Shown: in pieces, positions 6,960-63,205 of the stretch
Numbering within the stretch: position 1 is the stretch's first letter
Layout of the letters: the number at the start of each line of letters is the position of its first letter
Source: an uncultured virus (IMG/VR IMGVR_UViG_2645727837_000002)
Lineage: Duplodnaviria; Heunggongvirae; Uroviricota; Caudoviricetes
DNA: 64,000 nt
IMG/VR virus record: IMGVR_UViG_2645727837_000002
Location: 1-64,000 of that record
Strand: one strand, 5' to 3'
The notes under the pieces: generated by a model
Told to the model about the DNA's origin: nothing
What the model saw: only the letters and a program-made list of their open reading frames with translations
The model's database searches: none
Program-made: the position numbers and the translations under genes

Positions 6960-7006
6960 CTTGTTTTGAGGGCCGGTGGTGGTCGGCCCTTCCTGCGTGT
7001 GGTGGA

Positions 7007-7585
7007 TTACGAGTTGCGTGCGTCCAGCCCGCCCTTGTCGGCGCGCGCTTCAGCTGCTGCGTTCGTGTATGCGTTCGGGAAGCGCTGCTTCAGCTTCGCG
7101 ATGTTCGAGGACATGACCTCTTCGAGCGGCATGTCGAGCGCGTCGCATGCATGGGCCACGCCGCTGAGGATGTTCACGAGGCTGCGCATCGCACCAGTGC
7201 GGGCGCGCGGATCTTGATGCAGCGGCACTTCGTACGTAAAGAAGCCGATCTCGACCGAGATGCGATTCGCGACGATCTGGAGCTGTTCCGCGAGCGGTAG
7301 CGCGCTGAGGTCGAAGTCAAAGAGATGCTGGTATTCGGGGATCTCGAAGTCGAGGGCGTCGGCACCGATGGCCACGTACCAGAGGATGTCGCCCAGCTCT
7401 TCGAAGATGTGTTCGCGCATCTCCTGCGTGAGCGGCTTCTGATACGCCCAAAGCCGTTTGACTTCGGTGGTGAACTCGCCGTGTTCGGTCGTGAGACCGA
7501 GAGATGCGTGTTGCAGGCGCAGCAGAGAAGTTGCCAGAGGCTTCTCGGTGCGAAGCGCCAGGGGCTTGTATTGTTCGAAGTTCAT
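7007..7585 (-). CDS. MazG-like nucleotide pyrophosphohydrolase
   Basis: LGLTTEHGE..EELGDILWYVA..NIAKLKQRFP. Confidence 0.85.
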   Translation of the reverse strand: MNFEQYKPLALRTEKPLATSLLRLQHASLGLTTEHGEFTTEVKRLWAYQKPLTQEMREHIFEELGDILWYVAIGADALDFEIPEYQHLFDFDLSALPLAEQLQIVANRISVEIGFFTYEVPLHQDPRARTGAMRSLVNILSGVAHACDALDMPLEEVMSSNIAKLKQRFPNAYTNAAAEARADKGGLDARNS

Positions 7586-7586
7586 T

Positions 7587-7934
7587 TTAGTAAGTCTCGG
7601 GTGGTGCGGTAAACCAGAGTCGGCGCGGAACAGGACGTTCGACGGGCATCGCGTATTGGATGATCATGTCGTCATCTCGAACCTGAACCATCGTGATCAG
7701 CCCTTTGTCGTGCTTCTCACGTGCGCTTGCCAGAATCCGTTCAAACCTTTCATTCCAGCGGCGTTCCGCAGGGTACTTGCGCGCAATGATGAAGGCGTAA
7801 TTTCCAGGGTTTCCCCAGCCGAAGAGTTCCATTTTGTTCATCTCTTCGACGACACGTTCCAGGGTGGTGTCAAGGAACGTGGCGATAAGCTGGGGGGTGA
7901 AGTTTTGATCAAGTAGCGTTTTGATGGACTCCAT
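7587..7934 (-). CDS. Hypothetical phage protein
   Basis: Operonic ORF with an RBS. Confidence 0.65.
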   Translation of the reverse strand: MESIKTLLDQNFTPQLIATFLDTTLERVVEEMNKMELFGWGNPGNYAFIIARKYPAERRWNERFERILASAREKHDKGLITMVQVRDDDMIIQYAMPVERPVPRRLWFTAPPETY

Positions 7935-9964: not shown

Positions 9965-10969
9965 TCAAGCAGCGTTACGTCGTTCTTGGTACATGATGAG
10001 CACTTCGTTCGAAGTCTCGGCGGTGACGTTGTGCTTCGTCAGGCAGCGCGACAGGATGTCGAGCATGTCGAACGACTCGGTCTGCATGGTGATGTCGACG
10101 TACTCTTCGCCGTTGTCGGCGATCGGCTTCGTCGTCAGTGCCCATGCGTCGACCGGGAAATCGATCTGCTCACCCGGCTTGAGCAGCACGCGCACGGCCA
10201 CATCGTGGAACTGGGCCGGCGTGGTAGCAACGACGGCGCGCAGCTCATCGAGCGTGAGCGTAACGTAGCGACCGTCTTCGTCGTTCTCGCCGTGGGCGTA
10301 TGGTTGCATCGAGCCGGGGAAGACGACACGCACGCCGTTGAGCACTTCGTCGTACGGCCGGTGATCGTGGCCGCTGACGACCAGCTTCGTGAGCGGCCGA
10401 AGCTCGAACAGCGGGATCGCGTTGTGCGGGTTGTCCTCGAACGTGACGCGGTCCCAGTGTCCGATGACCAGATCGAACTCCTTGTAGCCGTCGTCGACCA
10501 GCTTGCGCGCCATGTCCTTCGAGTTGATGAATGGGTGCCAGGGCACGACGCCCAGGCGGAAGATGCCGTGTTCGACGACCTGGACGTCATCCTTCGCGAT
10601 GACGATGTTCTCGACGCCGTCGAGCAGCTGGTACAGCAGGTCGAACGAGCTGCGCTTGTCGGCGTCGCGCGAAGCGTCATGGTTGCCACGCGTGAGGATG
10701 AACCACGTGCTGGGTCGAGCGCGCGCTGCCTCGCGGTATGACGACGCGACGGCCAGAACGATCTCAGGAGGAACAACGAACGTGTCGAAGATGTCGCCGA
10801 GGCAGATGTTCACGTCGACGTCCGCGAACAACGACTCGACGAATTCGTGCATCTGCGTTCGCTCGCGCTCGCCACGACGATCAAGAGGGACACCAGTCAG
10901 GAAAGCACGACCGAGATGGGGGTCGCCAAGAAAGCCGACCCGGAGGCCGGCGATAGTTTCGATTTTCAT
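9965..10969 (-). CDS. SbcD/Mre11-like (gp47-like) metallophosphoesterase nuclease
   Basis: GDPHLG, LGDIF, GNHD, GHDH and PGS motifs; adjacent to the SbcC-like gene. Confidence 0.9.
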   Translation of the reverse strand: MKIETIAGLRVGFLGDPHLGRAFLTGVPLDRRGERERTQMHEFVESLFADVDVNICLGDIFDTFVVPPEIVLAVASSYREAARARPSTWFILTRGNHDASRDADKRSSFDLLYQLLDGVENIVIAKDDVQVVEHGIFRLGVVPWHPFINSKDMARKLVDDGYKEFDLVIGHWDRVTFEDNPHNAIPLFELRPLTKLVVSGHDHRPYDEVLNGVRVVFPGSMQPYAHGENDEDGRYVTLTLDELRAVVATTPAQFHDVAVRVLLKPGEQIDFPVDAWALTTKPIADNGEEYVDITMQTESFDMLDILSRCLTKHNVTAETSNEVLIMYQERRNAA

Positions 10970-11037
10970 GATTCACAACCTAGTGAAGTGGTGGTACAGC
11001 GCGCCGTAGCGCGCTGCTCTCTCGGTTGCGCTACCGC

Positions 11038-12061: not shown

Positions 12062-12138
12062 TTTTCTTTTACTGATGTGGTGGTGGTGTGCTAAGCATTA
12101 TATGGAGATAACCATCGCAGAAGTTCTGCAACTATATG

Positions 12139-13428: not shown

Positions 13429-13586
13429 GATTGGTCCTTCGTGGTGGTGTTCTTCAGGGTGGCCAGTTCCTGGCCTTGTTCGTGGATCGTCAGCAGGAGG
13501 TCCAGCACGACCCGCGGAATACACATCTTCCGCAGGTCATTTCGCTGCTCACGCGTCAGATCCTGGAGCGTGAGCTTCGACTTCAC
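13356..13586 (-). CDS. Hypothetical phage protein
   Basis: GTGA coupling with the upstream gene. Confidence 0.5.
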   Translation of the reverse strand: MKSKLTLQDLTREQRNDLRKMCIPRVVLDLLLTIHEQGQELATLKNTTTKDQSCTALTDSWPSAVQPRLASRRRKL

Positions 13587-16485: not shown

Positions 16486-16674
16486 TTACCCCGCCACTTC
16501 GTCGGCAGCTTCAGCGCCGACCAGCGCGAGTGCCATCATCGCGTGAGTCGGTTCCGCATCGAGCATCGCCCGGAACTGGGCGGCGATGCCGTCGATCTTG
16601 GTACGATCATCTTCGGGGAGCTTCGAAATCTCGTCTTGAATGACGAGCAGCTGAATACGTTCAGCAGAGGCCAT
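16486..16674 (-). CDS. Hypothetical phage protein
   Basis: AAGGA RBS; operonic position. Confidence 0.65.
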   Translation of the reverse strand: MASAERIQLLVIQDEISKLPEDDRTKIDGIAAQFRAMLDAEPTHAMMALALVGAEAADEVAG

Positions 16675-16696
16675 GTTTTGATCCTTGTGGTGGTGG

Positions 16697-17473
16697 TCAC
16701 ATCATGAAATCTGAGAGGATGTGGTTGATCGCTTTGTCGTCGTGTTGGCCGACAACCAGGTGCTTTGCGATCAGGTCCGGGTCAACTTCGTAGAAGCCCG
16801 TGATCTCCCACATGCCTTTCAGTGCTGCTTCGTTTTCCTTCACCCACGCCAGCGGCTTCTTGCTGAGGTAGAAGGAGCCGGCTTCGCTATCCCAGCAGGG
16901 CGCGTAGCCCTCGGTGAAGAACTGCATCCAGCGCTCGCGGTCGCAGTGCTCCCACGCCACGTCGCCGAAACCGGGGATACCGGTGATCTTGTCGGACTTG
17001 TCACCAACGAGCGTCTTGTACAGGCGCACTTCGGTGAAGTTGGTGTTGTCGTACTGAACCTTGTCGCGTCCTTCGAGCTTCGTGTGCTTGCCGTCGCACA
17101 GCGCGAGGTAGTCGCCGTCAGTCGAGTGGATGGTGATCGAGTCCGTCTGGTCTTTGTAGAGACGATGCAGTGTGGCAATAACGTCGTCCGCTTCCCATGT
17201 GGGGATCTCAAGCGACATGCAGCGCGTGAAGCGCAGCACCTGCTTGAACAGGTCCATCGTCTTGTAGAACTCGTCTACGGCGCTTTGCCGGCCGACCTTG
17301 TATCCGGGGTAGAGCGCGCGGCGTCGGTCCTTCGCGCCGTGTCCATCCCAAACCCAAATGATGGTGTCGAACATCGGCAGCATCTTCATGTCGACCAGCA
17401 CGTTGCGAATCGAGCCGCTGGTTTCGAAGATGGTGCGGAAACGGTTGTTTCCGTCGATGAAATGCAAACCCAT
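16697..17473 (-). CDS. 5'-3' exonuclease / flap endonuclease
   Basis: IDGNN, YKVGR, EADDVIA, STDGD and GDKSDKITGIPGFG (H3TH). Confidence 0.9.
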   Translation of the reverse strand: MGLHFIDGNNRFRTIFETSGSIRNVLVDMKMLPMFDTIIWVWDGHGAKDRRRALYPGYKVGRQSAVDEFYKTMDLFKQVLRFTRCMSLEIPTWEADDVIATLHRLYKDQTDSITIHSTDGDYLALCDGKHTKLEGRDKVQYDNTNFTEVRLYKTLVGDKSDKITGIPGFGDVAWEHCDRERWMQFFTEGYAPCWDSEAGSFYLSKKPLAWVKENEAALKGMWEITGFYEVDPDLIAKHLVVGQHDDKAINHILSDFMM

Positions 17474-18253: not shown

Positions 18254-18396
18254 AAAATTCCTTCAAATGTTAGCTGTTTATGCGTCTGTTTCTGCTTCTG
18301 CTCTCTCGCCGTGGTGGTGGACACGTCGAGGAATAAGATCGTACCTTCGTGCTACTAACTACACAATGCTGCTCTATACGATAGATCGCGCCCTCC

Positions 18397-21815: not shown

Positions 21816-22043
21816 TCAGACTTTCATGTAGGGGAAACGAGTCGGGTGCTTCTTGATGAGGCTGCTGAAGGCCGCGCCAAACGATTCGGCCACGACCAGC
21901 TGGTCGACGACTTCCTTCGGCACGTTGCTGTACTGGTACTCGTCGCCGTTCTTGACGAAGACGATGTTGAGTCGCTGATCTTGTTCGTTATATGCGAATG
22001 CGGAGATCTGCGACGAAGTCACAGACGTGTAGCCAGATTTCAT
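21816..22043 (-). CDS. KTSC-domain protein
   Basis: VTSSQISAFAYN..LNIVF..YQYSNVP..LVVAESFG. Confidence 0.85.
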   Translation of the reverse strand: MKSGYTSVTSSQISAFAYNEQDQRLNIVFVKNGDEYQYSNVPKEVVDQLVVAESFGAAFSSLIKKHPTRFPYMKV

Positions 22044-22157
22044 GTTTCGATCTCTTATAGATTGAAGGTTGCTGTTCAGGTGGTGGTGACACCCGTTGCT
22101 ACGGTGAGCCTTTACGGGAAGCGTGGTGGTGGGTCGCTTACCGTGGGGCTTTACTGC

Positions 22158-22627: not shown

Positions 22628-22896
22628 GCCTTCACCTTCGTGCGTCGGAGTTCATCGCGCAGGCGCTTCAGACGCGCGATCTGTTTCTTGTCCAGCAGGC
22701 CGGAGTTGATCGTGTTCGAGACGGCCGAGTACCACGTTTCACGCGAGATCGGGGATTCCTTGCCTTGGTCGTCGGCGACGTTCACGTTCGCGAATTTGCG
22801 GAGCGCTTCACCGGTCTTGACCAGTGCGTCGACAGCTTTGGGTACATCGGCCAGCGGGTGAGGTCTCGCCTCAGTGGTGGTGGTGGTGGTGTTCAT
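22624..22896 (-). CDS. Hypothetical phage protein with poly-Thr N-terminus
   Basis: ATGA overlap with the upstream gene; begins MNTTTTTTE. Confidence 0.6.
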   Translation of the reverse strand: MNTTTTTTEARPHPLADVPKAVDALVKTGEALRKFANVNVADDQGKESPISRETWYSAVSNTINSGLLDKKQIARLKRLRDELRRTKVKA

Positions 22897-23192: not shown

Positions 23193-23408
23193 CTATCGCA
23201 TCTCGATCTTCGCGCCTTCCGGGATATAGCCCACCGGGAGGACAAAGAAAGTCTTGATGACCCGAAGCTTCTCCAAAGTCCGCATGGTCCGCACCCACGC
23301 GGCGAGCACATGATCGTGGGTGAAATACTTCGGTTCCATGTGGTTATCCAGGTGGTGGACCTGTATCACCTGCGGCGGATTCAACAAGGTGTCCTTTTCC
23401 GATGTCAC
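23193..23408 (-). CDS. Hypothetical phage protein
   Basis: AAGGAGG RBS and GTG start. Confidence 0.55.
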   Translation of the reverse strand: MTSEKDTLLNPPQVIQVHHLDNHMEPKYFTHDHVLAAWVRTMRTLEKLRVIKTFFVLPVGYIPEGAKIEMR

Positions 23409-24924: not shown

Positions 24925-25332
24925 TTACTGCGTCTTCAGCAGCGTCGGTTGGAGCTTGTAGTGCTTCGAGAGGTACGTCAGGATCGCGTCGCCGTGCTCC
25001 GCGAGGTTGGCCAGCAGCTGCTCTTCGGTCGCCGCGACCGGCAGAGCGTAACCTTCGGTGATCACGGTGCCGTCCGCGCCCTTCACCGCCTCGATGTGAA
25101 CCGGCTTCACGCCGTGCAGCATGAGGTCAGCGATCTTCTTCAGCGACGTGGTGCGCTCGGCGACGAAGGCTTCACGGGCCTTCTGCTGCTCCTGGAAGCG
25201 GGCTTCGTCCGCGGCCGACCAGTTCGATGCAGCCTTCGGAGCGCCGCGCAGCGCGCGCGGGGACTTGCCGTCGTTGCCGCCCTTGTTCTTCTTCGGAGCA
25301 GCGGAGTTCTTGGTCGTGGTGGTGGGTTCCAT
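24925..25332 (-). CDS. Hypothetical phage protein
   Basis: GAAGGA RBS; strongly biased codons; own terminator. Confidence 0.65.
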   Translation of the reverse strand: MEPTTTTKNSAAPKKNKGGNDGKSPRALRGAPKAASNWSAADEARFQEQQKAREAFVAERTTSLKKIADLMLHGVKPVHIEAVKGADGTVITEGYALPVAATEEQLLANLAEHGDAILTYLSKHYKLQPTLLKTQ

Positions 25333-25393: not shown

Positions 25394-25774
25394 TCAGGTA
25401 CGGCCTCTCATCGACACGGGTAGCAATCCCGTGTCGATGAGATGGTTCAGGACAACGACCGGCGTGGAAACCGGGAACGTCCTGACACATTCGCTGAGAC
25501 CCAGTGCGATGGCATCGATGGCCTTTTTACGCACAGTCGCAGCTTCAGCTTCGGTGGGTCGCGGGAGGTAAGGCACGAGCGCGCGGCAGATCTGCTCGGC
25601 CCGCTCAATCAGCCCGTCCGTGATGTCGGTCTCGCTGATGTCGCGATAAGCAAACGTGCTCACGACGGCTTCGACAGACGCCCGCTGATGGGCCTCTACT
25701 TCTTCCTTGCGCGATGCCAGTTCGCGCAGCAGACGCTCGTCGTCGTCCGTCCAGGTTGTGGTGGTGGTGGTCAT
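25394..25774 (-). CDS. Hypothetical phage protein with poly-Thr N-terminus
   Basis: Begins MTTTTTTW. Confidence 0.6.
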   Translation of the reverse strand: MTTTTTTWTDDDERLLRELASRKEEVEAHQRASVEAVVSTFAYRDISETDITDGLIERAEQICRALVPYLPRPTEAEAATVRKKAIDAIALGLSECVRTFPVSTPVVVLNHLIDTGLLPVSMRGRT

Positions 25775-28724: not shown

Positions 28725-28799
28725 CGTTGTGGTGGTGGTTTGTTAGCGGTTTCGGTGACCGAGGCGCGTGGCCAGACGAGCCTCGTTCAACTTGAACTT

Positions 28800-29030
28800 T
28801 CAGATCGCAGCTGCCATCGAGGCTTGAGCTTCGCGCCGATATTGGCGCTCGTCGTCGGAGACGTGCGCAGCCAAGCGGGCTTCGCGTGCCTCAAGCTTCG
28901 CGACTTCTGCCTGGAAATGTTCGAGTGCGCCACGCGCTTCGAGCAGCGCGAGGCGCGTCATGCGCAGCTGGTTCTTCGCTTCTTTAGCGGGCGACTTGCC
29001 CGTGAACATCGTGATGATTGCACTCAACAT
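28800..29030 (-). CDS. Hypothetical coiled-coil protein
   Basis: GAGGT RBS. Confidence 0.6.
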   Translation of the reverse strand: MLSAIITMFTGKSPAKEAKNQLRMTRLALLEARGALEHFQAEVAKLEAREARLAAHVSDDERQYRREAQASMAAAI

Positions 29031-29052
29031 GGTGGTTACCTCGGTGTGGTGG

Positions 29053-29322
29053 TTATGCTTTCCGCTCGATACAGAGGAGGTAGCGAATCTCCCCGACGCG
29101 CGTTGCCATAACTGCGGTGAAAAGGTTTGTACTGAATTTCGAGTCGCGCATTTCCGCCGGCCTACGGCTGGCTGGGGTATTGATGGTTCTCATCAATTGC
29201 GGGTAACCCTCAACAGTCGTTTCTATGTAGTGGCGCTCGCCCACTTCCATCATGGAAAGCATTTCGTTCCATGATCCGGCTCTTACCCCGTATGACTTTC
29301 GGGGTCTATCTTCGGTGGTCAT
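29053..29322 (-). CDS. Hypothetical phage protein
   Basis: Start just after the upstream stop (MTTEDRP). Confidence 0.55.
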   Translation of the reverse strand: MTTEDRPRKSYGVRAGSWNEMLSMMEVGERHYIETTVEGYPQLMRTINTPASRRPAEMRDSKFSTNLFTAVMATRVGEIRYLLCIERKA

Positions 29323-32601: not shown

Positions 32602-32625
32602 GGTGTGTGGTGGTGATGAGGGTAT

Positions 32626-35168: not shown

Positions 35169-35477
35169 TCAGAAGACGTATTCGTCGTTGTGGTAGATAG
35201 TCAGCGCCACCGGCGTGTCGGCCGTCGTGTACGGGTTGTAGGTGATACCCGTAATCTTCGCGCCCGTCTCGCTCTCGAATCGGGCAATCGCCCGCTTGAT
35301 GTGCTCGCTCAGTTGAAATTGGAGCAGATCGCGAGCGAACTTCACTTCGCGCCTCGTGTACGGCGCAGGAGGTTCAACTTGAACCGTTGCGTTCGTGATG
35401 AGTTTGTCGACGTCAGCCGCGACCGCTGTATTGACGTCAACTTCAGTCGTATTCTTGGCCAGTTCTTGGGTGCTCAT
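35169..35477 (-). CDS. Hypothetical phage protein
   Basis: Start preceded by CACCACCACCACGGATCAAAAC. Confidence 0.65.
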   Translation of the reverse strand: MSTQELAKNTTEVDVNTAVAADVDKLITNATVQVEPPAPYTRREVKFARDLLQFQLSEHIKRAIARFESETGAKITGITYNPYTTADTPVALTIYHNDEYVF

Positions 35478-35499
35478 GTTTTGATCCGTGGTGGTGGTG

Positions 35500-35685: not shown

Positions 35686-36326
35686 GCCGGCACTCCTTCG
35701 CGCGCTTCACGTGCCCTGTCGTAGCTCGGGTCGTTGTACTTCGCGAACAGATGCGGAAACGCTTCTTCGATTCGACGACAGTTCGACATGTCAGCGTTGA
35801 TCCATGCGTGGGCCAGCTTCTGCGCGAAGCCACCGGCGAAGTCACGCATGTTGAATGCCATGCGCTGCCGCTCAGCGTAGGGCCGCGACGAGATCGGATG
35901 CGGACGCTGCTTCAGGCACATACGGCCGTGTTGTGCGTACATGGCTGCGAGCCGTTGTTCGTGGGTTTCCTGCATACCCGCGAAGTGCTCCAGCATCGCC
36001 GTCAGGTGGAGAATCACGTCGCGTTCATTGAGCGATTCGGCTCGATCGGTCACGGTGCGTTGATCGTCCAGCTCGTAGTACCAAGCCTTGCGCAGTCGCG
36101 GGCCGTCCTCGTGGTTCTTGATGACCATGCCGCACTGCTTGGCCATGTTGTCGATGAGCACGTCGAGCGGCAGGTTCACGTCACGTTGTTCATCGTTCAG
36201 TTGCTCGAACACGCTTGCAGTAAGCACGATCTGCATCGCTCGTTCGACGTACGGTGCGCGCTGGCCAGCATCGCTCATCATCTCTTCGAAACTGTCAAAC
36301 GGGCCGTAGGTGGTGGTGTTGCCCAT
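35682..36326 (-). CDS. Hypothetical phage protein
   Basis: AAGGA RBS; GGFAQKLAHAWINAD..IEEAFP. Confidence 0.65.
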   Translation of the reverse strand: MGNTTTYGPFDSFEEMMSDAGQRAPYVERAMQIVLTASVFEQLNDEQRDVNLPLDVLIDNMAKQCGMVIKNHEDGPRLRKAWYYELDDQRTVTDRAESLNERDVILHLTAMLEHFAGMQETHEQRLAAMYAQHGRMCLKQRPHPISSRPYAERQRMAFNMRDFAGGFAQKLAHAWINADMSNCRRIEEAFPHLFAKYNDPSYDRAREAREGVPA

Positions 36327-36343
36327 GATGTTTGATCCTTGGT

Positions 36344-36938: not shown

Positions 36939-37247
36939 CTACCCCTGTTGCGACTGGGAACGTTGGGTGACCTGCTGTACGCTTTCCAACCCATCGAGTT
37001 CAGCCCTGCCACTCTTGATCTGTTCAAGGATCGTCTCGACGTGCTGGATGTTGTTGATGACCCCGTCGACGATCTTCATCAGCGGCTCGTCCTGCAACGC
37101 AACGCCGCACGACGCCTTCGCATACTCGTCGTTGATGATCTGCGCCAGGTTGTCGGGCAATACCACGGTCACTTCGTGGCGCAGTGCCTCGACGTAGTCG
37201 GTGAACTGCCGGCCATCGGCCGTCACATATGTCTCGATAGTCTTCAT
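36939..37247 (-). CDS. Hypothetical phage protein
   Basis: YVTADGRQFTDYVEALRHE. Confidence 0.6.
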   Translation of the reverse strand: MKTIETYVTADGRQFTDYVEALRHEVTVVLPDNLAQIINDEYAKASCGVALQDEPLMKIVDGVINNIQHVETILEQIKSGRAELDGLESVQQVTQRSQSQQG

Positions 37248-37443
37248 GGTGGTGGGTTCTCTTCAGGGAATGCAGGCCGATCGATGTCAGCTCGCGAACA
37301 CGGTCAAGATCGGTCGAATGTCCTGTTCACTGTCTTCACGCGACTTGAACAGTTCGTCGATTGCGTCAAACAGCTGGGGAGCTTCGGAATAGATTGCGTT
37401 CATGGTGTTCGTCGTTTCTTCTTGTTGGTTCTCAGGCGATGGT

Positions 37444-37836
37444 TCAAGTTGAACCTATCGGGTATGGGTCGACTTCCTGAAACAGCGCGTGGTGAAACAC
37501 ATCGTGCAGGTAGTCCTTGATGCTGTTCCGGTTACGGCCAGTGATCCGGATAACAGCCCCCGTGTCCAGCGATGGCGTGACGATCACGTGGTGTTCCGAC
37601 CATCCGTCGTACATCCCGTGTCCGTTCATGTGATGAAAATCGGCTTGAAATACCAGCTTGTTGCTCTTGCACTCGTCTTCGAGCAGTTGCGTGCCTGAGT
37701 CAAGGCCCGAGCCTGAAGGAAGCATGTCGAGCAGCTTTCCGAGGCGCACTTCATGGCTGGGAAGGTAGGGGCTGCGCGTGGACTTGCAGCGCTCGATAGT
37801 CGCGAGCGTGGACGCAATCGCGGCATAAAGCGGCAT
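37444..37836 (-). CDS. Hypothetical phage protein
   Basis: LPSGSGLDSG..FHHMNGHGMYDGW; stop lies inside a palindrome. Confidence 0.65.
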   Translation of the reverse strand: MPLYAAIASTLATIERCKSTRSPYLPSHEVRLGKLLDMLPSGSGLDSGTQLLEDECKSNKLVFQADFHHMNGHGMYDGWSEHHVIVTPSLDTGAVIRITGRNRNSIKDYLHDVFHHALFQEVDPYPIGST

Positions 37837-37975
37837 GGTGGTGGTGATCACGATTCCTATCGGAATGGTTTTGTCAGAGGCTCTATATGCCGCTGGCGTT
37901 GTTTTTGGCTAGGTGGGTATACGGGAGATCCCGAAAGGCCCACCTGCACCTGGAAAAACGGTCTGGCCCGCTGAT

Positions 37976-39331: not shown

Positions 39332-39569
39332 CGGAATTCTCCGGATGGTTCAACTTGCACTTTTCATCCAGTTTCTGGATCAAGCCGCCTACTGGGCGCT
39401 ACTACGCCTGCCGCAGAGGCATGACCGGATTCGTGGATACGTGGATGCCCCAGCGACAGGCGCATGAACGGTAGCGCCGGCCCCTATAGGGAGAAGAAAA
39501 AGGAACGACTCACGCCACCACGCGCGAGCCGTTCAAACCCGCCCAGTCTGGCAACTGGACGGGGTTGAC

Positions 39570-40328
39570 TTATGCCGCTACCGTTTCGGTTTCGGCGACT
39601 GCGATATTCAGGGCTGCTGCTGCCTGAACGTCGGCGAGAATCGTTTGTGCAAAGAACTGCCGATCCGCATCGGTCATACCCGCCATGACGGCGCGCACGG
39701 ATTCAGCGAAACGCGCCGCGTTTTCGCGCGATACGTCTGCAACGCTGCGGTTATCCGCTTCATTCACCTCAGCGGCGGGCGTTTGTGCGGGCTGTGCATC
39801 GCTCGCGGGCGCTTCAGGCGTGCTGCTCGTTACTTCAGACGGAGTTTTCGCGGTTGCGCCTTTCGGCTCGCGCTTACCCGCCGCTTTAGCGAACCCGAAC
39901 GCGGCAAACAACGCGTCTTGCGACGTGCAGCCCATGCCGAGAAGCCACGCGCGCACGATGCCGGCCGCGTCTTCGTCTTTCTCTGCGTTCGCAATTTCAG
40001 TCACGGGCGCGCCCTTGTCGGCTGCTTGCTTCGCGATGCCAACCGATTTTTCCGCGTAACGCTTCGCGGTCGGAAACGCGGCACGCGTGGCGCTTACGCG
40101 ATCGGCCGCGCCCATGTCCGCCCACTTTTTACCGGCGCGTTGCTCGGCGATTTGCTCGCTCAACACGTCAATCAAGCGAGCCGCATAGCCGCGCGCGCCG
40201 TGATTGTCGTCGCGAAGGCACAAGGCAACGATTGCCGAGTAAGCGCGCGTGATTGCGCTGCGTTCCGTGCCGATGATTTCCTTCGCGGCATAGGTTGCCG
40301 CGCCCGATGCAATTTGAAACTCAGCCAT
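39570..40328 (-). CDS. Hypothetical Ala-rich protein, first gene of the leftward early cluster
   Basis: 252-aa ORF with AGGGG RBS; two palindrome variants upstream. Confidence 0.65.
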   Translation of the reverse strand: MAEFQIASGAATYAAKEIIGTERSAITRAYSAIVALCLRDDNHGARGYAARLIDVLSEQIAEQRAGKKWADMGAADRVSATRAAFPTAKRYAEKSVGIAKQAADKGAPVTEIANAEKDEDAAGIVRAWLLGMGCTSQDALFAAFGFAKAAGKREPKGATAKTPSEVTSSTPEAPASDAQPAQTPAAEVNEADNRSVADVSRENAARFAESVRAVMAGMTDADRQFFAQTILADVQAAAALNIAVAETETVAA

Positions 40329-40808: not shown

Positions 40809-41384
40809 ATGACGATGGAGAAAGAGAAACTTAAGCGCCAGGACTTTACGGTTGAGATGGCTCGCGAGCACTTTGGCTACGACCCAGCAGCAGGTCGCGT
40901 TATTCGTCTGACAAACAGTCCGAGAGGGCCTAGATCTGCCGGAAAAATCGCCAGCTCCTTACACAAACCATCAGGTTTTCGGCAGGTAGTTTTCAAAGGG
41001 TTAGTCATCTATGAACATCATCTCGTATGGGCACTCGCCTATGGATACTGGCCTACAGGCTCGATTCGCCATCGAGACGATGACAAGCAAAACAACCAGG
41101 TTGAGAACCTGTTTGACCCCGCCCAAGTTGTAACCGTAAGTAACCTTGCGGACACGAAAGACGCTTTCCCAGGAGTCATCGTCACCAACTCCGGGAACTA
41201 CAGGGCCACCATTTATCGAGATAAAGCAATCCACCTTGGCACGTTCTCAAGTCCTGTAGAAGCGCATGAGATGTACCTTGCAGCCAAGGTCGTTCTTCAT
41301 AGTCCTCTTAACAGAGGAGTAAGTACCGATGAATTGCTAAAACCTCTTTTGATAAGCCGAAAGGGACTTGCAAAGGTAGGTTGA
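40809..41384 (+). CDS. HNH endonuclease with AP2-like DNA-binding domain
   Basis: HHLVWAL..IRHRDDDKQNNQVENL; FPGV..YRATI..HLGTFSSPVEAHEMY; low GC. Confidence 0.85.
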   Translation: MTMEKEKLKRQDFTVEMAREHFGYDPAAGRVIRLTNSPRGPRSAGKIASSLHKPSGFRQVVFKGLVIYEHHLVWALAYGYWPTGSIRHRDDDKQNNQVENLFDPAQVVTVSNLADTKDAFPGVIVTNSGNYRATIYRDKAIHLGTFSSPVEAHEMYLAAKVVLHSPLNRGVSTDELLKPLLISRKGLAKVG

Positions 41385-41396
41385 GACAGGTAAAGT
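41368..41396 (+). promoter_or_regulatory. Sigma70-type promoter of the candidate sRNA
   Basis: TTGCAA (41368-73), 17-nt spacer, TAAAGT (41391-96). Confidence 0.65.
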
Positions 41397-41402
41397 TAAC
41401 AA

Positions 41403-41568
41403 AGTGCTTGATGATCTGTGGTGGTGAGTCAAGCATGGCAAGTTGAGAGACTTGTCTTAGGCAGTCGAGGTGGCCAGCCTCACTGTCAGCCCTCTTCAGG
41501 GGCATGTTTTGATCAATGTTAGCTGTTAGGTCGCCCCGAGGATTAGCTACCCTCGGGGCGATTTTTTT
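41403..41568 (+). ncRNA. Candidate multi-seed trans-acting small RNA
   Basis: Promoter, four hairpins, an unpaired U-rich tract and a terminator; loops and tract are complementary to motifs at many phage start codons. Confidence 0.75.
41531..41568 (+). terminator. Intrinsic terminator of the candidate sRNA
   Basis: TCGCCCCGAGG, 9-nt loop, CCTCGGGGCGA, then T7. Confidence 0.9.
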
Positions 41569-41616
41569 CGTACTCGCGTTTCTAGTAGTTCTCTTCGCGG
41601 TTATACATGCTCAGCA

Positions 41617-44136: not shown

Positions 44137-44677
44137 TCGAAGACTCTTGTGTGGTGGTGGACGCAGCGTCATCGTCGGAACGACGAGTGTTGATTGCGCT
44201 GCGCAGGCGTTCCATGACCTCAGTGCGCTGATCCGGCGACATGCACTCTTCCATGATGCTCAGGACGGTGTCCTGGAAGTCGCGAATCTGCTTGATCCCC
44301 AGTGCACGCTCACGAGCTGTCACCAGACGTTCGAGAAGACTGGTCGCCGTGCGAAAGTACGCCATCCGCTCCGTCTGGTCTGATTGAGGGATGGTCTTGC
44401 CGTAGTTCTTCAGGTCGGCGAAGACTCGATACAGGTCGATGTCGAGACTCGAATCGATCTGGTCCTCGGTGATCTCGAAATCCGCTATGTCAACCTTCTT
44501 TTGTTCAGGTTGAACCTGACGATGAATCAGGTTCGAGATCACTTTCTTGAAATCGACACCGTAAGGGCATGCTTCATCGTCAAGATAGGCCGCATTCTCC
44601 GTGGCCAAGGTAATGATCATCTTGATCGACCACTCGACATGATCGGTAATGACCGGGTAGTGAAAGTCGTTGCTCAT
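44126..44677 (-). CDS. Hypothetical protein divergent from the large terminase (possible small terminase)
   Basis: 183-aa helical ORF coupled to the primase; function inferred from position only. Confidence 0.5.
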   Translation of the reverse strand: MSNDFHYPVITDHVEWSIKMIITLATENAAYLDDEACPYGVDFKKVISNLIHRQVQPEQKKVDIADFEITEDQIDSSLDIDLYRVFADLKNYGKTIPQSDQTERMAYFRTATSLLERLVTARERALGIKQIRDFQDTVLSIMEECMSPDQRTEVMERLRSAINTRRSDDDAASTTTQESSNEN

Positions 44678-44882: not shown

Positions 44883-46667
44883 ATGTCAAACCAGTATCTC
44901 CAACAGCTCTACGAACGCGCAGCGAACCGTTGGTCGAAGGACCGCGCGTCGATGACCTATGGTGACTGGATCTGTGCAAACACCACGCACAACGACAGGG
45001 CTTTCTCGTTCAAGCGCTACCCGTTCCAGAAGCAGATCGCGGACGACATGCACGACAACCTCGACTGCATCAAGCCGTCGCAGGTTGGCCTGACCGAAGT
45101 ACAGATCCGCAAAGTGCTCGCGTTCATCGCTCGAAACCGTGGCGTGAACGTCATCTACACGCTGCCCGACGAGGCCATGATGGAGCGCATCTCTGTCGGC
45201 CGGGTTCGACCACTCGTCGACGAGGAACACGCGTTCAACCTCGAATCGCTCGGTGGCAAAAAGCCGACGCGCACAAAAGAGATCATTCAGGTCGGCAAGA
45301 GCTTCCTCTACCTCACGGCTGCTGGTGAAGGGGCCGCGACGTCCATCTCCGCAGACATGGTCGTGAACGACGAGGTGGACTTGACCGATCAGTCGATGCT
45401 TGCCCTCTTCAACTCGCGACTTCAAGGTTCCGACTGGAAGCTGAACCACCGGTTTTCGACGCCGACCTTCCAGGACTACGGCATCGACCAGACGTACAAG
45501 GTTAGCGACCAGCACGAGTACATGTTGAAGTGCGCCTGCTGCAACCACTGGCAGGTGCCTGACTTCGAGCGCCCGTTCGTCCGAATCCCTGGCCTTCCCG
45601 ACAGTCTGGACTTCGAGGAGATTGAAGAGGCGATGATCGACGCCGGCACGATCGACCTCGACGCCGTCTCGATCCACTGCGAGCACTGCGGTGCGCCGCT
45701 GAACCTTGGCGACCACGAGCGCCGCGCATGGGTGCCGAAGTACCCGCAGCGCAAGCACGCGCGCGGCTATCGCGTGCGCGCCTTCTCGACCGAGCGCCTG
45801 CCGCCGAAGTACATCCTGCGGCAGCTCTTCATCTACAAGCGCAAGGACTTCATCCGCGGCTGGTACAACACCGTGCTCGGGCGCTCCCACACCGGGGGCG
45901 ACCAGCGCCTGAACGACGCGGACATCAACGCGGCCTTCACCGAGTTCCAACTGGTCCGTCCGTCGAGCAACACGATGCCGGCGTGGCTCGGCATCGACAT
46001 CGGCCAGACCTGTCACATCGTCGTCGGCGAAGGCTACGACGTGTCGTCGATCCACGTGGTCGAGTTCCTGACAGTGCCGGTCGGCCGCTTGTTGGAGGAG
46101 ATCGCGCGCATCCTGACCACGTACCGCCTCGTTGCCGGTGGTTGTGACCGTCACCCGTACACGCCGACCGCCGAGGCGGTGCGCGATGCGTCACATCGCC
46201 GCGTCCTGCCGAACGAGTACCGTGGCTCGAAGGAAATCAATCTCGTCAAGGACCCCGCCGGCGAGATCACGCACATGCAATCCAACCGGACACTCCTGCT
46301 CGACGAAGTGGCCCGAGCCATCCGGCTGCGCAAGATCAAGTTCTCCGGCTACGGGACGCACCGCTCGGCGATCGTTGAGCACCTGAAAGACATGGTTCGC
46401 AACGAAGAACCTGAGAAAGAAGCGGAATGGAAGAAGCTGAACGGCAACGATCACTTCTTCCACGCGCTGGGCTTCATGTTGTCTGCCGTGAAGCTGCACA
46501 CCACCAACGCATCCGCACTCTTCAACACGGAAACGCGCAGTGTCATCCAGATCGTCGGCGCGACCGTGGGCATGAACGAGACCAGTCAACTCACGCTGGC
46601 CAATACCAAACACACCACTGGCAACTTGATCTATGGCAACGACCACCACCCCCAAGTCTTCTTCTAA
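44883..46667 (+). CDS. terL: Terminase large subunit (lambda gpA-like)
   Basis: KPSQVGLTE, VNDEVD, FSTPT, CACC/CEHC Zn motifs, LGIDIG, DHFFHA. Confidence 0.9.
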   Translation: MSNQYLQQLYERAANRWSKDRASMTYGDWICANTTHNDRAFSFKRYPFQKQIADDMHDNLDCIKPSQVGLTEVQIRKVLAFIARNRGVNVIYTLPDEAMMERISVGRVRPLVDEEHAFNLESLGGKKPTRTKEIIQVGKSFLYLTAAGEGAATSISADMVVNDEVDLTDQSMLALFNSRLQGSDWKLNHRFSTPTFQDYGIDQTYKVSDQHEYMLKCACCNHWQVPDFERPFVRIPGLPDSLDFEEIEEAMIDAGTIDLDAVSIHCEHCGAPLNLGDHERRAWVPKYPQRKHARGYRVRAFSTERLPPKYILRQLFIYKRKDFIRGWYNTVLGRSHTGGDQRLNDADINAAFTEFQLVRPSSNTMPAWLGIDIGQTCHIVVGEGYDVSSIHVVEFLTVPVGRLLEEIARILTTYRLVAGGCDRHPYTPTAEAVRDASHRRVLPNEYRGSKEINLVKDPAGEITHMQSNRTLLLDEVARAIRLRKIKFSGYGTHRSAIVEHLKDMVRNEEPEKEAEWKKLNGNDHFFHALGFMLSAVKLHTTNASALFNTETRSVIQIVGATVGMNETSQLTLANTKHTTGNLIYGNDHHPQVFF

Positions 46668-48295: not shown

Positions 48296-49423
48296 ATGGC
48301 TAAGAGCGTTCCGATCACACCGAGAATTCAGAATCTGATCACCCGCAACACTGGGGGTGATCAGGTCGACTTCAACGCGATCGTCGTGTTCGAGGCCTCG
48401 GTCACTAACACGCGCCCGTTGACGAAGCCCGGTTCGATTTTCGACAAAGGCCAGATTCAGGTCGACACGCTCAACCAGATGGCCAGCTACCTCAACAGTG
48501 GCGGCTTCGTCCCCCTCCAGACCCTTCACCCGAACGGAGACGAACTCCCCCTCGGTCGTTTCTTCTACGGCGAAGTCCTCCCATCGACGCTCGGCGACGG
48601 ATCGAGCGAACTGGTCTGCCTCTTCTACCTGCCGAAAGACGACCCGAATGTCCCGAAGCTCGAAAACGGGATCATCGACGAGGTCAGCGTCGGGTTTGTC
48701 GGTCAACAGCTGCTCTGTTCGAAGTGCAGCTGGGACTGGCGTGGTCCCGAGGCCAGCTTCTCGAACTTCTACGACCGCGTGTGCGGGAATGATCACGTGC
48801 TCGGCGAAGACGGCGCGTATCTGAAGATCAACGGGCTGGATCGATGGACTGAAACGTCGCTCGTGTCGAAAGGCGCGGCGAACAACGCGAAGATTTTGGG
48901 CCGCACAAAGCAGCGGCTCGGCCAAGAGCAGTACGACCGCTTGGCAGCTTCGGGCGTCGCACCCGAGCATTTGATGCTGATTGCCACCACCACCACATCC
49001 CCTCGGAGTCCGAAGAAGATGGATAAGGAACTGATCGAAGAACTGGCCAACCTGAAGGCGGGCCAGAAGATCCACGAACACACGATTTCGCTGAAAGACG
49101 CGGAAATCGCGGCGCTCAAGACGACCAACGACGCGTTGAGCACCGAAAACAAGACGCTGAAGGAAGGCACGGAGCTGAAGGCCGCGCAAACCTCGCTGGC
49201 CGAGGCGCAAGCGAAGGTGACGGAACTGGAAGCTTCGGCAAAGACTGCTGAAACCGAGGTCGCCGATCTGAAGGCGAAGCTCGCAACCGCAGAAGCGCAG
49301 GTTGAAGTCCTGAAGGCGGGCGCTGGCAACGGCGGCCGCTCGCAAGGTTCCGATACCGGCACCGGTGCAACGAAGGGGACGACGCTTCACGCGTCGAGCG
49401 CGTTCAAGTCCGCGCCGCGTTAA
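48296..49423 (+). CDS. Prohead protease/scaffold protein
   Basis: H..GRF..EVSVGF..ETSLV protease-like N-terminal half; coiled-coil C-terminal half. Confidence 0.7.
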   Translation: MAKSVPITPRIQNLITRNTGGDQVDFNAIVVFEASVTNTRPLTKPGSIFDKGQIQVDTLNQMASYLNSGGFVPLQTLHPNGDELPLGRFFYGEVLPSTLGDGSSELVCLFYLPKDDPNVPKLENGIIDEVSVGFVGQQLLCSKCSWDWRGPEASFSNFYDRVCGNDHVLGEDGAYLKINGLDRWTETSLVSKGAANNAKILGRTKQRLGQEQYDRLAASGVAPEHLMLIATTTTSPRSPKKMDKELIEELANLKAGQKIHEHTISLKDAEIAALKTTNDALSTENKTLKEGTELKAAQTSLAEAQAKVTELEASAKTAETEVADLKAKLATAEAQVEVLKAGAGNGGRSQGSDTGTGATKGTTLHASSAFKSAPR

Positions 49424-49873: not shown

Positions 49874-49998
49874 AGAACGGCGGCAGATGACCTCGCCCAC
49901 CACCGGGGTCATCTGCTGGAAAAGCTGCAAAACCCTCGTCAGTTCCGACCACCACCGGGCTGTCGGGGGTTCAAAAACAACTGACAACGGATCAAAAC

Positions 49999-51192
49999 AT
50001 GGCAGATCTGATCGACATCGAGCGCAAGGCCCCTGCGGAGGTACTTGCGAACCTCAAGCCGAGCGACGCGCTCGACACCCAGCGCTCGGTTGACGCTGGC
50101 AAGCGCCTCGTGCGCCTTTCCGCCGAAGCTGGCCTGAACCTGCGTGACTACCTCACGCTCGCGATCGACCCGCGCAAGGCCGAAGACTCGGCCCGCTACG
50201 AAGGCCTGAACGGCTACGAAGCCGCCCTCGCCTACCTGAACCTGCCGGTTCGCCAGGATCTGTCGCAAGGCGTCCTGCTGCAAGCCGCTTCGGAAACGTT
50301 CCAAACGTATCCGGGCACCCGCGCGATGTTCCCGGAAGTCATGGACGACATCCTGCGCTGGAAGAACCGCCAGGACCAGATCGAACAGGTCGCTCCGCTC
50401 GTCGCACAGTCGCGCACGATCAACGGCACCGAGATGATCTCGACGTTCGTCGAAGACGACTCGAACGAGCGCACGACGCACACGATCCCGGAACTGGGCC
50501 GCATCCCGGTTCGCACGATCCGCACGTCGCAACAGACGGTCGGCATCTTTAAGCACGGCTCGGGCTACCGTACCTCGTACGAATTCAATCGCCGCGCTTC
50601 GCTCGACATCATGACGCCGTTTGCAGCGCGCGTCGGCCGCGAGCTGGAGATCTCGAAGGTGCGTGCCGCGACGGCCATCCTGATCAACGGCGACGGCGTC
50701 AACGGCGCAGCCGGCGTGGTCAAGGTGTCGGATTTCGGCGGCGACGCCAGCAAGGCGTTCTCGTCGAACTACAAGGCGCTCGCGAAGTGGCTCATGGCCC
50801 GCGCGAAGGCTGGCTACCCGATCGACACGATTATCGGCAACTACGACATGTTCGTGGAGCTGCTGTTCATGTTCCAGCCGGTGACGGGCATCTCGGGCGC
50901 GCACGCGACCGACATCGAAGCGCTGGTCGCGCAGGGTACGCCGAAGATCAACACGCAGGTGCCGATCCTCAACCAATCGGTGAACTTCCACCTGTCGTCG
51001 GCCGTGCCGGAAGGCAAGCTGGTCGGCTTCACGAAGGCTGAAACGCTGGAAGAGCTGATCGAAGCCGGCTCGAACATCTCGGAAAACGAGCGTTCGATCC
51101 TGAACCAGTCGATCACCTACGTGCGTACGGAAAACACCGGCTACAAGCTGGCGTTCCCGGACACGCGCCAAGTCCTCGACGTGACCGCGTAA
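49999..51192 (+). CDS. Major capsid protein
   Basis: 397 aa, position, strong codon bias, terminator follows. Confidence 0.85.
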   Translation: MADLIDIERKAPAEVLANLKPSDALDTQRSVDAGKRLVRLSAEAGLNLRDYLTLAIDPRKAEDSARYEGLNGYEAALAYLNLPVRQDLSQGVLLQAASETFQTYPGTRAMFPEVMDDILRWKNRQDQIEQVAPLVAQSRTINGTEMISTFVEDDSNERTTHTIPELGRIPVRTIRTSQQTVGIFKHGSGYRTSYEFNRRASLDIMTPFAARVGRELEISKVRAATAILINGDGVNGAAGVVKVSDFGGDASKAFSSNYKALAKWLMARAKAGYPIDTIIGNYDMFVELLFMFQPVTGISGAHATDIEALVAQGTPKINTQVPILNQSVNFHLSSAVPEGKLVGFTKAETLEELIEAGSNISENERSILNQSITYVRTENTGYKLAFPDTRQVLDVTA

Positions 51193-55220: not shown

Positions 55221-55622
55221 ATGTCGACCACCACCACGCGACAATCCCCGTCCGCAAAAATCGAAATTACCCTGGCCGGCGAGAAGAAGAGCTTGTTCAT
55301 GTCTTTTGGCTTACTCAACGAACTGTGCCGTGGCATTGGCGATGCCCAAGGCGCGTTGCAAGTCACCGCCAACTCTCAACTTCGCGATTTCGTCCTGATG
55401 GTTGTGCTGTCCGATCGAGACGAAGAAGGCAATGTCGTCAAGCCGATCAACGTCAATCGAATCGAAATGTCGATCGATGACGGTGAACGCCTGCTCGACT
55501 GGGTATCGCAGCACGCGACTGATTTTTTCGTCCGGACGATGGAGAGAATCGTCACGGGGCACAAGGACAAGGAAAGCCGGTTGAAGGCTCTGAAAGAGCT
55601 GGCCGAAAACCCGGCAAGCTAA
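55221..55622 (+). CDS. Tail assembly chaperone (gpG-like)
   Basis: Between the tube and tape measure genes; slippery heptamer near the 3' end. Confidence 0.7.
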   Translation: MSTTTTRQSPSAKIEITLAGEKKSLFMSFGLLNELCRGIGDAQGALQVTANSQLRDFVLMVVLSDRDEEGNVVKPINVNRIEMSIDDGERLLDWVSQHATDFFVRTMERIVTGHKDKESRLKALKELAENPAS

Positions 55623-61792: not shown

Positions 61793-62185
61793 ATGGCAAC
61801 GTCACTCACTTTCGATTTTCCGAATCATCTGGTCGAAGAGAAGTACCCCGAGTCTGGAACGCGAATCCAGCTCGGGAACTCGTATGTATTCTCGACGCCG
61901 CCGACCGCTCCGGAACAACGCATCTTCATTCTCTCGTTCGAGACGATGTGGCGCGGGATCAACGCGGACGGCTCCGTGGACATCACCACGAATCCGCTCA
62001 ACAACATGGGTCTTCTCAAAGCCTTCTACGAAACGTACAGGCTCTACAAGACCTTCCAGTACAAGCACCCCTGGTTGGGGACCTTGAACGTCCGCTTCAA
62101 CAAGCCTCTCGAAATGCCGAAGGGTAAAAAAGGAGCCGACGGGTGGTCTGAGGCCTTCAGCGTCGAGTTCGTGGAGATGCCGTGA
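61793..62185 (+). CDS. Distal tail protein (gpM-like)
   Basis: Position directly after the tape measure gene. Confidence 0.65.
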   Translation: MATSLTFDFPNHLVEEKYPESGTRIQLGNSYVFSTPPTAPEQRIFILSFETMWRGINADGSVDITTNPLNNMGLLKAFYETYRLYKTFQYKHPWLGTLNVRFNKPLEMPKGKKGADGWSEAFSVEFVEMP

Positions 62186-62676
62186 GATCCGATCTTCCTG
62201 ATACCCATGTTTCCCAGTCCTTCGAGCTGTCAGCCGACGCACTGGTCGACCTATTCAAGATGGAACTCAACAGTATCTCCGGTGGCACGGTCCTTTGCAT
62301 GACAGCCAAGACTCAAGTCACGTGGCAAGGGATGGTGTTCGAGTCCATCCCTATCACCCTCGCCGGCGAGGGTGTTCGCACGGATGGTCAGTGGAATCGA
62401 CCGAAGCTCACGATCGCCAACCCGGACGGGCTCTTCTCTGCGTTTATCGCGCAGGGAAAGACCGACAGTGCAACGATCACACGCTACCGGTGTCATCTTG
62501 AGGATGTGAGAAACAATGTCGGCCGCTACCAGATCAACATCTGGCGCGTGTCGAAGACCCTGAGCATGAGCAATTCGATGGCTACCTTCGAACTGCGTAC
62601 CCCACTTGACGGGCAGATGTTCTACCTGCCGGCACGTGCCTTTTACCCACCGGAGTTCCCCCATGTCTCTCTATGA
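62182..62676 (+). CDS. Minor tail protein (gpL-like, short)
   Basis: VTWQG..PI..G..RPKLTIAN..TFELRTPLD..LPAR. Confidence 0.75.
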   Translation: MRSDLPDTHVSQSFELSADALVDLFKMELNSISGGTVLCMTAKTQVTWQGMVFESIPITLAGEGVRTDGQWNRPKLTIANPDGLFSAFIAQGKTDSATITRYRCHLEDVRNNVGRYQINIWRVSKTLSMSNSMATFELRTPLDGQMFYLPARAFYPPEFPHVSL

Positions 62677-63205
62677 AAAATACATCGAAGGGTTCGAGGG
62701 AATCCCGTACGTCGAAGGCCGCGACGATTGCTACGGCCTCGTGCGCAAATGGTTGGACAAGACCTATGGAATGAAGTTGACGAACTACGCTCGACCGTGC
62801 GCGTGGGAAAACGACGGCTTCAATCTGCTCGGCGACTACTTTAACCGTGAGGGCTTTGTCCTCATCAATACGCCACTGAATCGCTTGCAGATCGGCGACC
62901 TGTTGATGATGCACGTCGCCAGTAGGTCCGGCATCGCGAACCACATCGGCGTCTACGTCGGCAATCAGTACGTGTTGCATCACCTGTATGGCCAAGTCTC
63001 GAAAGCCGACCCACTGAACGACCGGTGGAAGAACCGCGTGCTCGATGTCATCCGGCATCCGGACATCGCAGCGAAGAATCAGGAACAAGCAGAGTCGGTC
63101 GATTTCATGACCCTCCTGCCACCACACTTGAGAGAGAAGTATGAACGACGACTTGTTGAAACTCTGGACTCCCCTGACCGAACGGTGCGGCTTCCTCCTA
63201 AATGA
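62663..63205 (+). CDS. NlpC/P60 tail peptidase (gpK C-terminal-like)
   Basis: GIPY..DCYGLVR..GDLL..NHIGVY..VLHH. Confidence 0.85.
   Translation: MSLYEKYIEGFEGIPYVEGRDDCYGLVRKWLDKTYGMKLTNYARPCAWENDGFNLLGDYFNREGFVLINTPLNRLQIGDLLMMHVASRSGIANHIGVYVGNQYVLHHLYGQVSKADPLNDRWKNRVLDVIRHPDIAAKNQEQAESVDFMTLLPPHLREKYERRLVETLDSPDRTVRLPPK

Follow-up and report, generated by a model that had tools for sequence, protein, structure and literature searches.

Why does one short, strand-specific repeat stand at the start of so many genes of a single phage? The question is raised by the ACCACCAC repeats in a 64,000-nucleotide (nt) stretch of DNA (the window), bases 1-64000 of the virus record IMGVR_UViG_2645727837_000002, which totals 79,966 nt and is a ~80-kb JWF-like Burkholderia prophage. 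An initial annotation had observed that the motif marks translation starts and flips with gene direction, and had proposed it as the target of a small RNA (sRNA) loop. Our analysis points the same way. The repeats would serve as address tags, recognised through base pairing by a trans-acting RNA that the phage itself encodes at 41402-41568, and complementarity together with genome comparison makes pairing between tags and RNA highly probable. That the RNA represses enhancer-like tagged leaders genome-wide is an interpretation that we favour only slightly over its being wrong.

Repeats at gene starts

Gene starts were taken from a motif-blind caller, which gives 107 genes on the whole record. 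Over that record, 24 clusters of ACCACCAC fall in start windows (9,891 nt), 3 in coding-sequence bodies (63,888 nt), none antisense and 3 elsewhere (p=2e-18); none of five control 7-mers tested shows start enrichment. A shift null (3000 shifts) places on average 2.2 and at most 10 clusters near a start, against 25 of the 30 observed. CCACCAC stands upstream of 18 genes, compared with 0.85 (maximum 6) in composition shuffles, and the tag occurs within the first 13 codons of 8 genes, compared with 1.5 (maximum 5) and 3.2 (maximum 7) in two synonymous shuffles of 2000 each. All eight in-gene copies are in the Thr frame, and Thr-Thr pairs are written ACCACC in 18/34 N-terminal cases versus 14/93 in gene bodies. 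Thus, counted by strand and distance, the enrichment holds, and codon, composition and shift nulls all fail to reproduce it. The flip with gene direction was also borne out: all 20 clusters between 6000 and 44700 are minus-strand copies (one being the reverse strand of the RNA gene itself), and all four between 44701 and 64000 are plus-strand copies.

The individual copies reported initially could mostly be recovered. All 22 GTGGTGG coordinates are found in the sequence, 20 of them start-proximal and two, 8938 and 54000, remaining true exceptions. Among the 20, 18 lie at -46 to +16 of a called start, and those at 18311 and 22123 lie at -64 and -86. The seven plus-strand copies are present as well, the one at 48284 only as the shorter CACCACA. 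Their distances to the start are +9 (46642), -12 (48284), -51 (49948), -102 (49897) and +6 (55227). The copy at 63119 lies 22 nt 5' of a JAB-domain open reading frame at 63141, a gene missed by the motif-blind caller, and the copy at 48984 is inside the gene 48296-49423, 35 nt 5' of an in-frame internal Met at 49019. The poly-Thr N-termini had been quoted correctly.

Over five regions 27/106 starts, about a quarter, are tagged: 8/21 in replication, 11/40 among early small genes, 1/4 in the control region, 7/32 in virion and lysis, and 0/9 in the cargo region, a count from which the integrase leader is cut off by the window edge. The integrase is encoded at 1-1275, and since the window begins at its ATG, the leader is not visible. 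Initially the motif had not been seen at integrase and cargo starts. This stands for the cargo and not for the integrase, whose leaders are tagged in 3/3 relatives examined (G001, G002 and L142) and almost devoid of Shine-Dalgarno (SD) sites (0.2, -2.9 and -0.7). In one host genome (G006), the prophage alone holds 10 copies of ACCACCACCAC and the remaining 8.6 Mb hold 21, so this 11-mer address is mainly the phage's own.

A structured RNA with two candidate guides

The proposed partner of the tags lies between an HNH-family gene and the end of the primase gene, where the following features were delineated.

41368..41396, plus strand: promoter-like site TTGCAA-17-TAAAGT, 8/12 consensus matches
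41402..41568, plus strand: candidate small RNA with five hairpins and a terminator end (from fold and covariation; limits are those of the model)
41413..41428, plus strand: guide 1, loop GAUCUGUGGUGGUGAG, complement of the ACCACCAC tag, invariant in 12/12 copies
41470..41478, plus strand: P3 loop GUGGCCAGC, invariant in 12/12 copies
41503..41516, plus strand: guide 2, single-stranded (CAU)GUUUUGAUC, complement of GGAUCAAAAC(AUG)
41528..41568, plus strand: intrinsic-terminator-like hairpin with a 9-nt loop and U tract, double changes in 7/13 pairs

The 167-nt element carries GTGGTGGTG at 41418, and its fold (z=-6.1) is beaten by 0/200 shuffles. In 12 aligned copies 96.6% of the modelled cells pair, and 17/34 pairs show changes on both sides, above 500/500 shuffles, a figure that is not a probability because five of the 12 copies are near-identical. 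Copies measure 160-169 nt, with indels that are not in threes, and are retained by relatives with 78-100% primase identity. By these comparisons the ~165-nt element is a conserved, structured, non-coding unit with its own predicted terminator, a hairpin that the terminator scanner missed because its loop limit is 8 nt. The promoter-like site stands 7-10 nt 5' of the first stem in 6/6 RNA-bearing whole genomes, that is, the window phage and five whole relatives (9/12 matches in 5/5 relatives, 8/12 here); the element is presumably transcribed.

The guides were identified by a blind walk, in which the complement of each 7-mer of the RNA was tested for start enrichment, a cut passed by <1% of all 7-mers. 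For loop 1, start enrichment of the complements was seen in 6/6 genomes, and in 5/6 they are the top 7-mers; for guide 2 it was seen in 5/6, the remaining genome, G003, showing guide 1 only. Among guide-2 complements GATCAAAAC occurs at six starts and in no gene body. The enriched words run on into the flanks of each RNA's own guide: in G001 they reach into ACAAUGGAUC, and in the window phage they continue through AUG. Guide 2, the third single-stranded stretch, is nearly invariant among the 12 copies; by its complementarity it is a second candidate guide, new in this analysis, matching the GGAUCAAAAC tag just 5' of AUG. For the P3 loop no clear partner emerged: the word CTGGCCA is found at 10 starts and in 14 bodies here and is weak in relatives, and a duplex-energy test shows no enrichment. 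The RNA self-dimer, at about -12 kcal/mol in all six RNAs, is not informative.

No credible match to the RNA was found among 4227 Rfam families, either at the gathering score or at E<=10, including the GcvB, c4, sar and P4 CI models; blastn against 50,697 phage records gave no match, and a gapped RNA pattern gave 0 matches in metagenomes. The loop 16-mer occurs at 20 loci in viral contigs, 11 of them family members; the other nine lack the stem and were set aside as likely chance. A search for copies with an altered loop 1 gave at least 119 stretches, and among the 80 loci listed none fit the RNA model. When 55 distant primase loci (35-62% identity) were searched through their flanks only, none matched the model, and 54 loci longer than 9 kb, three of them clade members, yielded no convincing other tag beyond SD variants. 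Among 95 host-genus genomes only G006 matched, a lower bound, as 29 candidates were scored per genome. Among listed RNA-seq data no carrier of the RNA turned up, and no description of the RNA or the tag was found in the literature, which was covered in part.

RNA and tags co-occur and change together

Judged by polymerase and capsid, the nearest phages are the Achromobacter phages JWF and 2-1 (64-74% identity), with Lumi, Seuss and Acinetobacter phages as more remote kin. JWF and 2-1 are like the window phage in gene order and family, and likewise have a hairpin cluster with a terminator 3' of the HNH gene at the equivalent position; however, this ~95-nt element does not match the window RNA model, ACCACCAC tags are missing and SD sites are stronger. 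RNA and tags co-occur in 6/6 whole genomes, and both are missing in JWF and 2-1. Start/body counts of the tag are 24/3, 18/5, 17/5, 14/3, 12/3 and 7/4 in the six RNA-bearing genomes, and 1/2 and 0/2 in JWF and 2-1, which lack a model match. Orthologs of tagged genes are tagged in 52/70 pairs within the clade and in 0/14 in JWF; orthologs of untagged genes are tagged in 23/195.

In G004 guide 2 carries a U-to-C change, and six of seven tagged genes there read GATCGAA (6 G:1 A), compared with 3/17 other genes (3 G:14 A; nominal p=0.004). The switch includes the orthologs of the capsid gene and of gene 16486-16674. Taken together, the conserved covarying RNA, complementarity, co-occurrence and guide-2/tag co-change support the initial proposal that the motif is the target of an sRNA loop. 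A cross-genome table of guide-2 energies was confounded by GC content and was not used.

Tagged leaders and the case for repression

Tagged genes differ from others in what precedes them. A gap of >10 nt lies 5' of 20/26 tagged genes versus 34/81 untagged ones, and folding is weaker in tagged leaders (-4.7 to -5.8 versus -8.7 kcal/mol). Their SD sites are weak: 14 tagged genes of the window phage score -3.0 versus -4.9 in their JWF orthologs (p=0.014), 31 untagged genes -4.3 versus -5.0 (p=0.12), and 67 pooled tagged pairs -2.9 versus -5.1. Pooled sites peak at -25..-16 (45), -10..-6 (12) and 0..+9 (24), and guide-2 sites at -10..-6 (21). Tag positions range from -100 to +20 of the start with no fixed spacing; together with the lack of a duplex with the 16S 3' end, this speaks against the tag as an SD-like ribosome site. 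Ribosome bridging or 16S mimicry by the RNA is likewise unsupported, as no signal is conserved across the six RNAs; against the 16S gene of a host-genus genome (L127), loop 1 pairs with the 3' end in an ordinary manner (14% of shuffles are as good). Two other 16S likenesses were seen. The terminator loop 41539-41553 matches 16S 780-794 at 14/15 positions and beats 60/60 shuffles, and is unkept in 5/5 relatives. Guide 2 resembles 16S 10-19 in 3/6 RNAs, so that this part of 16S is a further complement of the GGAUCAAAAC tag. Both are probably chance.

How might pairing act? Loop 1 would pair with the ACCACCAC tags and the second guide with GGAUCAAAAC at the SD position. The tagged leaders are unstructured, C/A-rich and SD-weak, and their openness probably drives initiation. 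RNA bound within the 30S footprint would block initiation where many coupled blocks begin, at the leading genes for replication, early functions, head, tail, lysis and integrase. One RNA could thereby dampen the phage programme as a second layer beneath a DNA-operator system, acting either in the lysogen or, during infection, as a timer or threshold. The sites concentrate on codons 1-4 and the SD position, and the tag crosses the ATG between orthologs. In the available parts of the sources cited here, pairing at the ribosome-binding site and the first five codons is described as repressive, activation normally involving upstream pairing (PMC7534054), and GcvB provides a precedent for a C/A-rich enhancer silenced by an sRNA (PMC3879156). 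Moreover, since the tagged leaders are weakly folded, there is no structure for an activator to open.

A number of observations weigh against pairing or against repression. The guide-2/tag co-change is known from one lineage, G004, and only guide 2 can provide such evidence because guide 1 never varies. The genomes compared are related, and p-values are nominal. Guide-1 duplexes of <= -18 kcal/mol form at 25/107 starts versus 64/600 bodies, only about a two-fold separation, and part of the guide-1 loop is predicted to be weakly paired internally. A standard promoter scanner called no promoter at the RNA locus, the window site (8/12) being below its threshold. The motif-blind caller favours SD when picking starts. 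SD sites are also weakened where the tag lies off the SD (-4.4 and -4.3 versus -5.7), and such loss beyond tag overlap fits dependence on the RNA equally well. Finally, RNA and tags are kept in 3/3 relatives lacking an integrase, so the system is not simply a lysogeny switch, and constant repression of primase and capsid would be odd in a phage unable to integrate.

Several of these points lend themselves to the opposite outcome, in which the same pairing delivers SD-poor mRNAs to initiation or shields them from nuclease or Rho, the two invariant non-guide loops binding a host or phage factor. The weaker SD sites of tagged genes relative to JWF orthologs, the tagged and nearly SD-less integrase leaders, the retention of the system in all three integrase-less relatives, a G003 capsid gene that has lost the tag and has an SD, and the invariance of the P3 loop despite its lack of clear mRNA targets are all in keeping with such assistance. 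Nevertheless, a duplex at these sites, which overlie codons 2-6 as well as the SD position, should keep the 30S subunit out, spacing is not fixed, loop 1 is not superior to shuffles in pairing with the 16S 3' end, and the 16S look-alikes are unconserved in the six RNAs. We consider assistance of this kind unlikely. In its fullest form, a private translation address system in which tags partly replace SD sites and the RNA, needed for translation or protection, is a natural trans-acting initiation adaptor, it seems to us equally doubtful; if true, it would account for the loss of SD sites, for tags in every gene class, for the persistence of the system without integrase and for the invariant non-guide loops.

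The tags might also be stand-alone C/A-rich enhancers, or protein or Rho sites, with the RNA acting on few targets or being merely the 3' end of the HNH gene. Tagged leaders are indeed unstructured and SD-poor, and JWF too has A/C-rich leaders and N-terminal Thr codons that prefer ACC (63/104). Yet the strict co-occurrence of RNA and tags, an invariant complementary loop among changing stems and the guide-2 co-change would all be left unexplained, the last being predicted by neither an enhancer-only nor a protein-site-only account; the RNA also has a promoter-like site of its own in 5/5 relatives. Taken on its own, this explanation is improbable, while the enhancer put forward as an alternative in the initial annotation is probably real as a component of the sRNA mechanism.

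Still less probable is action on transcription or DNA, whereby the RNA on nascent leaders would trigger or block termination in the manner of P4 CI, or would work with the degenerate HNH protein. Some tags do lie 50-100 nt upstream, the tag is C-rich and unstructured, and a nuclease-degenerate HNH gene is fixed beside the RNA; but tags follow start codons, the nested internal start included, and the HNH gene is also present in the untagged JWF and 2-1. As for chance, codon bias or a preference for poly-Thr protein, some orthologs do keep N-terminal Thr runs with mixed codons, but tags upstream of 18 genes, the failed codon nulls and the N-terminal bias toward ACCACC leave this next to no credence.

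Tag sites along the window

The tag sites are as follows.

6975..7005, minus strand: two tags 5' of the ThyX-like gene 6042-6959
10988..10995, minus strand: tag 5' of the SbcD-like nuclease gene 9965-10969
12077..12088, minus strand: tag 5' of the RecU-like resolvase gene 11654-12061
13441..13449, minus strand: tag 5' of the DNA ligase gene, start 13428
16672..16697, minus strand: double tag, ACCACCAC then GGATCAAAAC, 5' of gene 16486-16674
18311..18320, minus strand: tag 64 nt 5' of gene 17540-18253
22041..22132, minus strand: two tags and a GATCGAAAC site 5' of the KTSC-domain gene 21816-22043
22874..22891, minus strand: tag in codons 3-8 (MNTTTTTT) of gene 22624-22896
23351..23358, minus strand: tag 5' of gene 23193-23339, additional to those first reported
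25316..25325, minus strand: tag in the opening codons (MEPTTTT) of gene 24925-25332
25758..25771, minus strand: tag in the opening codons (MTTTTTT) of gene 25394-25774
28729..28739, minus strand: tag immediately 5' of gene 27966-28724
29030..29053, minus strand: tags 5' of gene 28800-29030
32607..32615, minus strand: tag immediately 5' of gene 32137-32601
35475..35499, minus strand: double tag 5' of gene 35169-35477, best guide-1 duplex (-28 kcal/mol)
36309..36338, minus strand: GGATCAAA 5' and ACCACC tag 3' of the ATG of gene 35682-36326 (MGNTTT)
37247..37255, minus strand: tag adjoining the ATG of gene 36939-37247
37836..37846, minus strand: tag at the start of gene 37444-37851
44151..44160, minus strand: tag 5' of the primase-polymerase gene, start 44136
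46642..46650, plus strand: tag in the opening codons of the portal gene (MATTTT)
48984..49021, plus strand: tag 5' of the in-frame internal Met 49019 (MDKE), inside gene 48296-49423
49897..50001, plus strand: two tags and GGATCAAAAC 5' of the major capsid gene 49999
55227..55237, plus strand: tag in the opening codons of the tail chaperone gene (MSTTTT)
63119..63125, plus strand: tag 5' of the JAB-domain tail gene 63141

Orthologs show how these sites persist and move. The tag of the ThyX-like gene is kept in 4/4 RNA-bearing orthologs and absent in JWF. In tail chaperone orthologs the tag lies 5' of the ATG, 3' of it or on both sides. The leader of the G004 ortholog of 16486-16674 carries GGATCGAAAC, as does that of its capsid gene, for which G005 has GGATCAGAAC and G003 an SD and no tag. 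The internal Met 49019 is conserved in 7/7 genomes, JWF included, and is preceded by a tag in 5/6 RNA-bearing genomes and not in JWF; 49019-49423 (MDKE..., coiled coil) is probably a nested gene, with a putative scaffolding identity.

Neighbouring genes and relatives

Two further genes were delineated.

40809..41384, plus strand: HNH-family gene directly 5' of the RNA
39570..40328, minus strand: divergent gene behind a repeated palindrome, untagged and with an SD in 6/6 RNA-bearing genomes

The HNH gene keeps its position throughout the clade and in JWF, and is also found in 2-1. Its HNH histidine is replaced in four aligned copies and a later metal-binding residue looks lost, and the protein is possibly a domesticated DNA-binding protein. 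For the 39570-40328 protein, the predicted fold (pLDDT, a per-residue confidence score, of 48) gave no PDB match, and an atlas search gave unnamed clusters only. A 15-bp palindrome (<=2 mismatches) has nine sites, at 18696, 32307, 33831, 35371, 36341, 37441, 38847, 39347 and 40383, the majority of them in the early region. The palindrome differs in every RNA-bearing relative, where it has 7-11 sites, always including one 5' of the 39570-40328 ortholog, and the palindrome and this gene look like a fast-changing operator/regulator pair. Beside the integrase, untagged genes for PAAR, a DUF4123 adaptor, Tox-REase-5 and Imm52 at 1324-3944 are interbacterial effector-immunity cargo.

The RNA occurs both in proviruses, among them four near-identical records, and in three records without integrase; two family searches found no tyrosine or serine recombinase in 3/5 complete RNA-bearing relatives. 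The lifestyle of these relatives is uncertain because JWF, also integrase-less, is described as temperate in the available part of its source (PMC9959647). One of them, G003 (L120-L124), shows the weakest tagging (14/123 genes) with loop 1 unchanged. Orthologs of 51608-52336 and 74064-74681 are far longer in some of G003-G005 (G004 13670-16003; 38005-42222), which suggests fusions or insertions. At the RNA position, another hairpin cluster of ~95 nt (L001 2316-2412; L129 2461-2560) is found in JWF, 2-1 and L131; it has UUGAG-containing loops, whose complements are weakly start-enriched (start/body counts 7/7 in JWF, 12/17 in 2-1). This element may represent the RNA/tag system in an older or a separate version.

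Comparison with known systems

A single RNA appears to have imposed its complement on about a quarter of the phage's own start regions, N-terminal codons included. If so, the phage programme would be under an RNA switch that spans the genome, and nature would offer a clean test of how a seed with many targets becomes frozen as those targets come and go; if the RNA activates instead, initiation would have a new mode. The tag also aids annotation, having exposed the nested start 49019. The host is a culturable Burkholderia, a near-identical prophage being present in a B. paludis record (a named contig whose primase is 96% identical to that of the window), and hence the system is amenable to reporter work.

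Among known phage RNAs, the P4 CI immunity RNA acts on one leader by premature termination. The window RNA is like it in being a small structured phage RNA that might restrain the lytic programme without a classic repressor; however, there is no sequence match, and the window phage also has a palindromic operator-like system. The c4 RNA has two separate guide segments and gives heteroimmunity, whereas guide 1 of the window RNA is invariant across the clade. According to the available part of one review (PMC12197685), c4 (P1/P7) and sar (P22) are phage-encoded base-pairing RNAs that act on phage translation in connection with lysogeny, c4 in trans. They are described there as targeting antirepressor mRNA, and reviewed phage sRNAs generally as having a single phage mRNA, a few of them, or host genes as their targets; the window RNA would address about 26/107 starts of all classes. 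As far as the available parts of the GcvB papers go, GcvB is similar in its G/U-rich single-stranded guide, many targets and freely placed C/A-rich elements near starts (PMC3879156, PMC7534054), and probably in enhancer silencing (PMC3879156). Unlike GcvB, the phage RNA lacks an Rfam or sequence match, is phage-encoded and would target the phage's own genes, with a guide in a hairpin loop, a second guide at the SD, and tags of ACC rather than ACA repeats. Overall, the RNA resembles GcvB in seed type and c4/sar as a phage RNA directed at phage mRNAs, and belongs to neither family; on present sequence evidence it is a candidate for multi-target sRNA control of unusual breadth.

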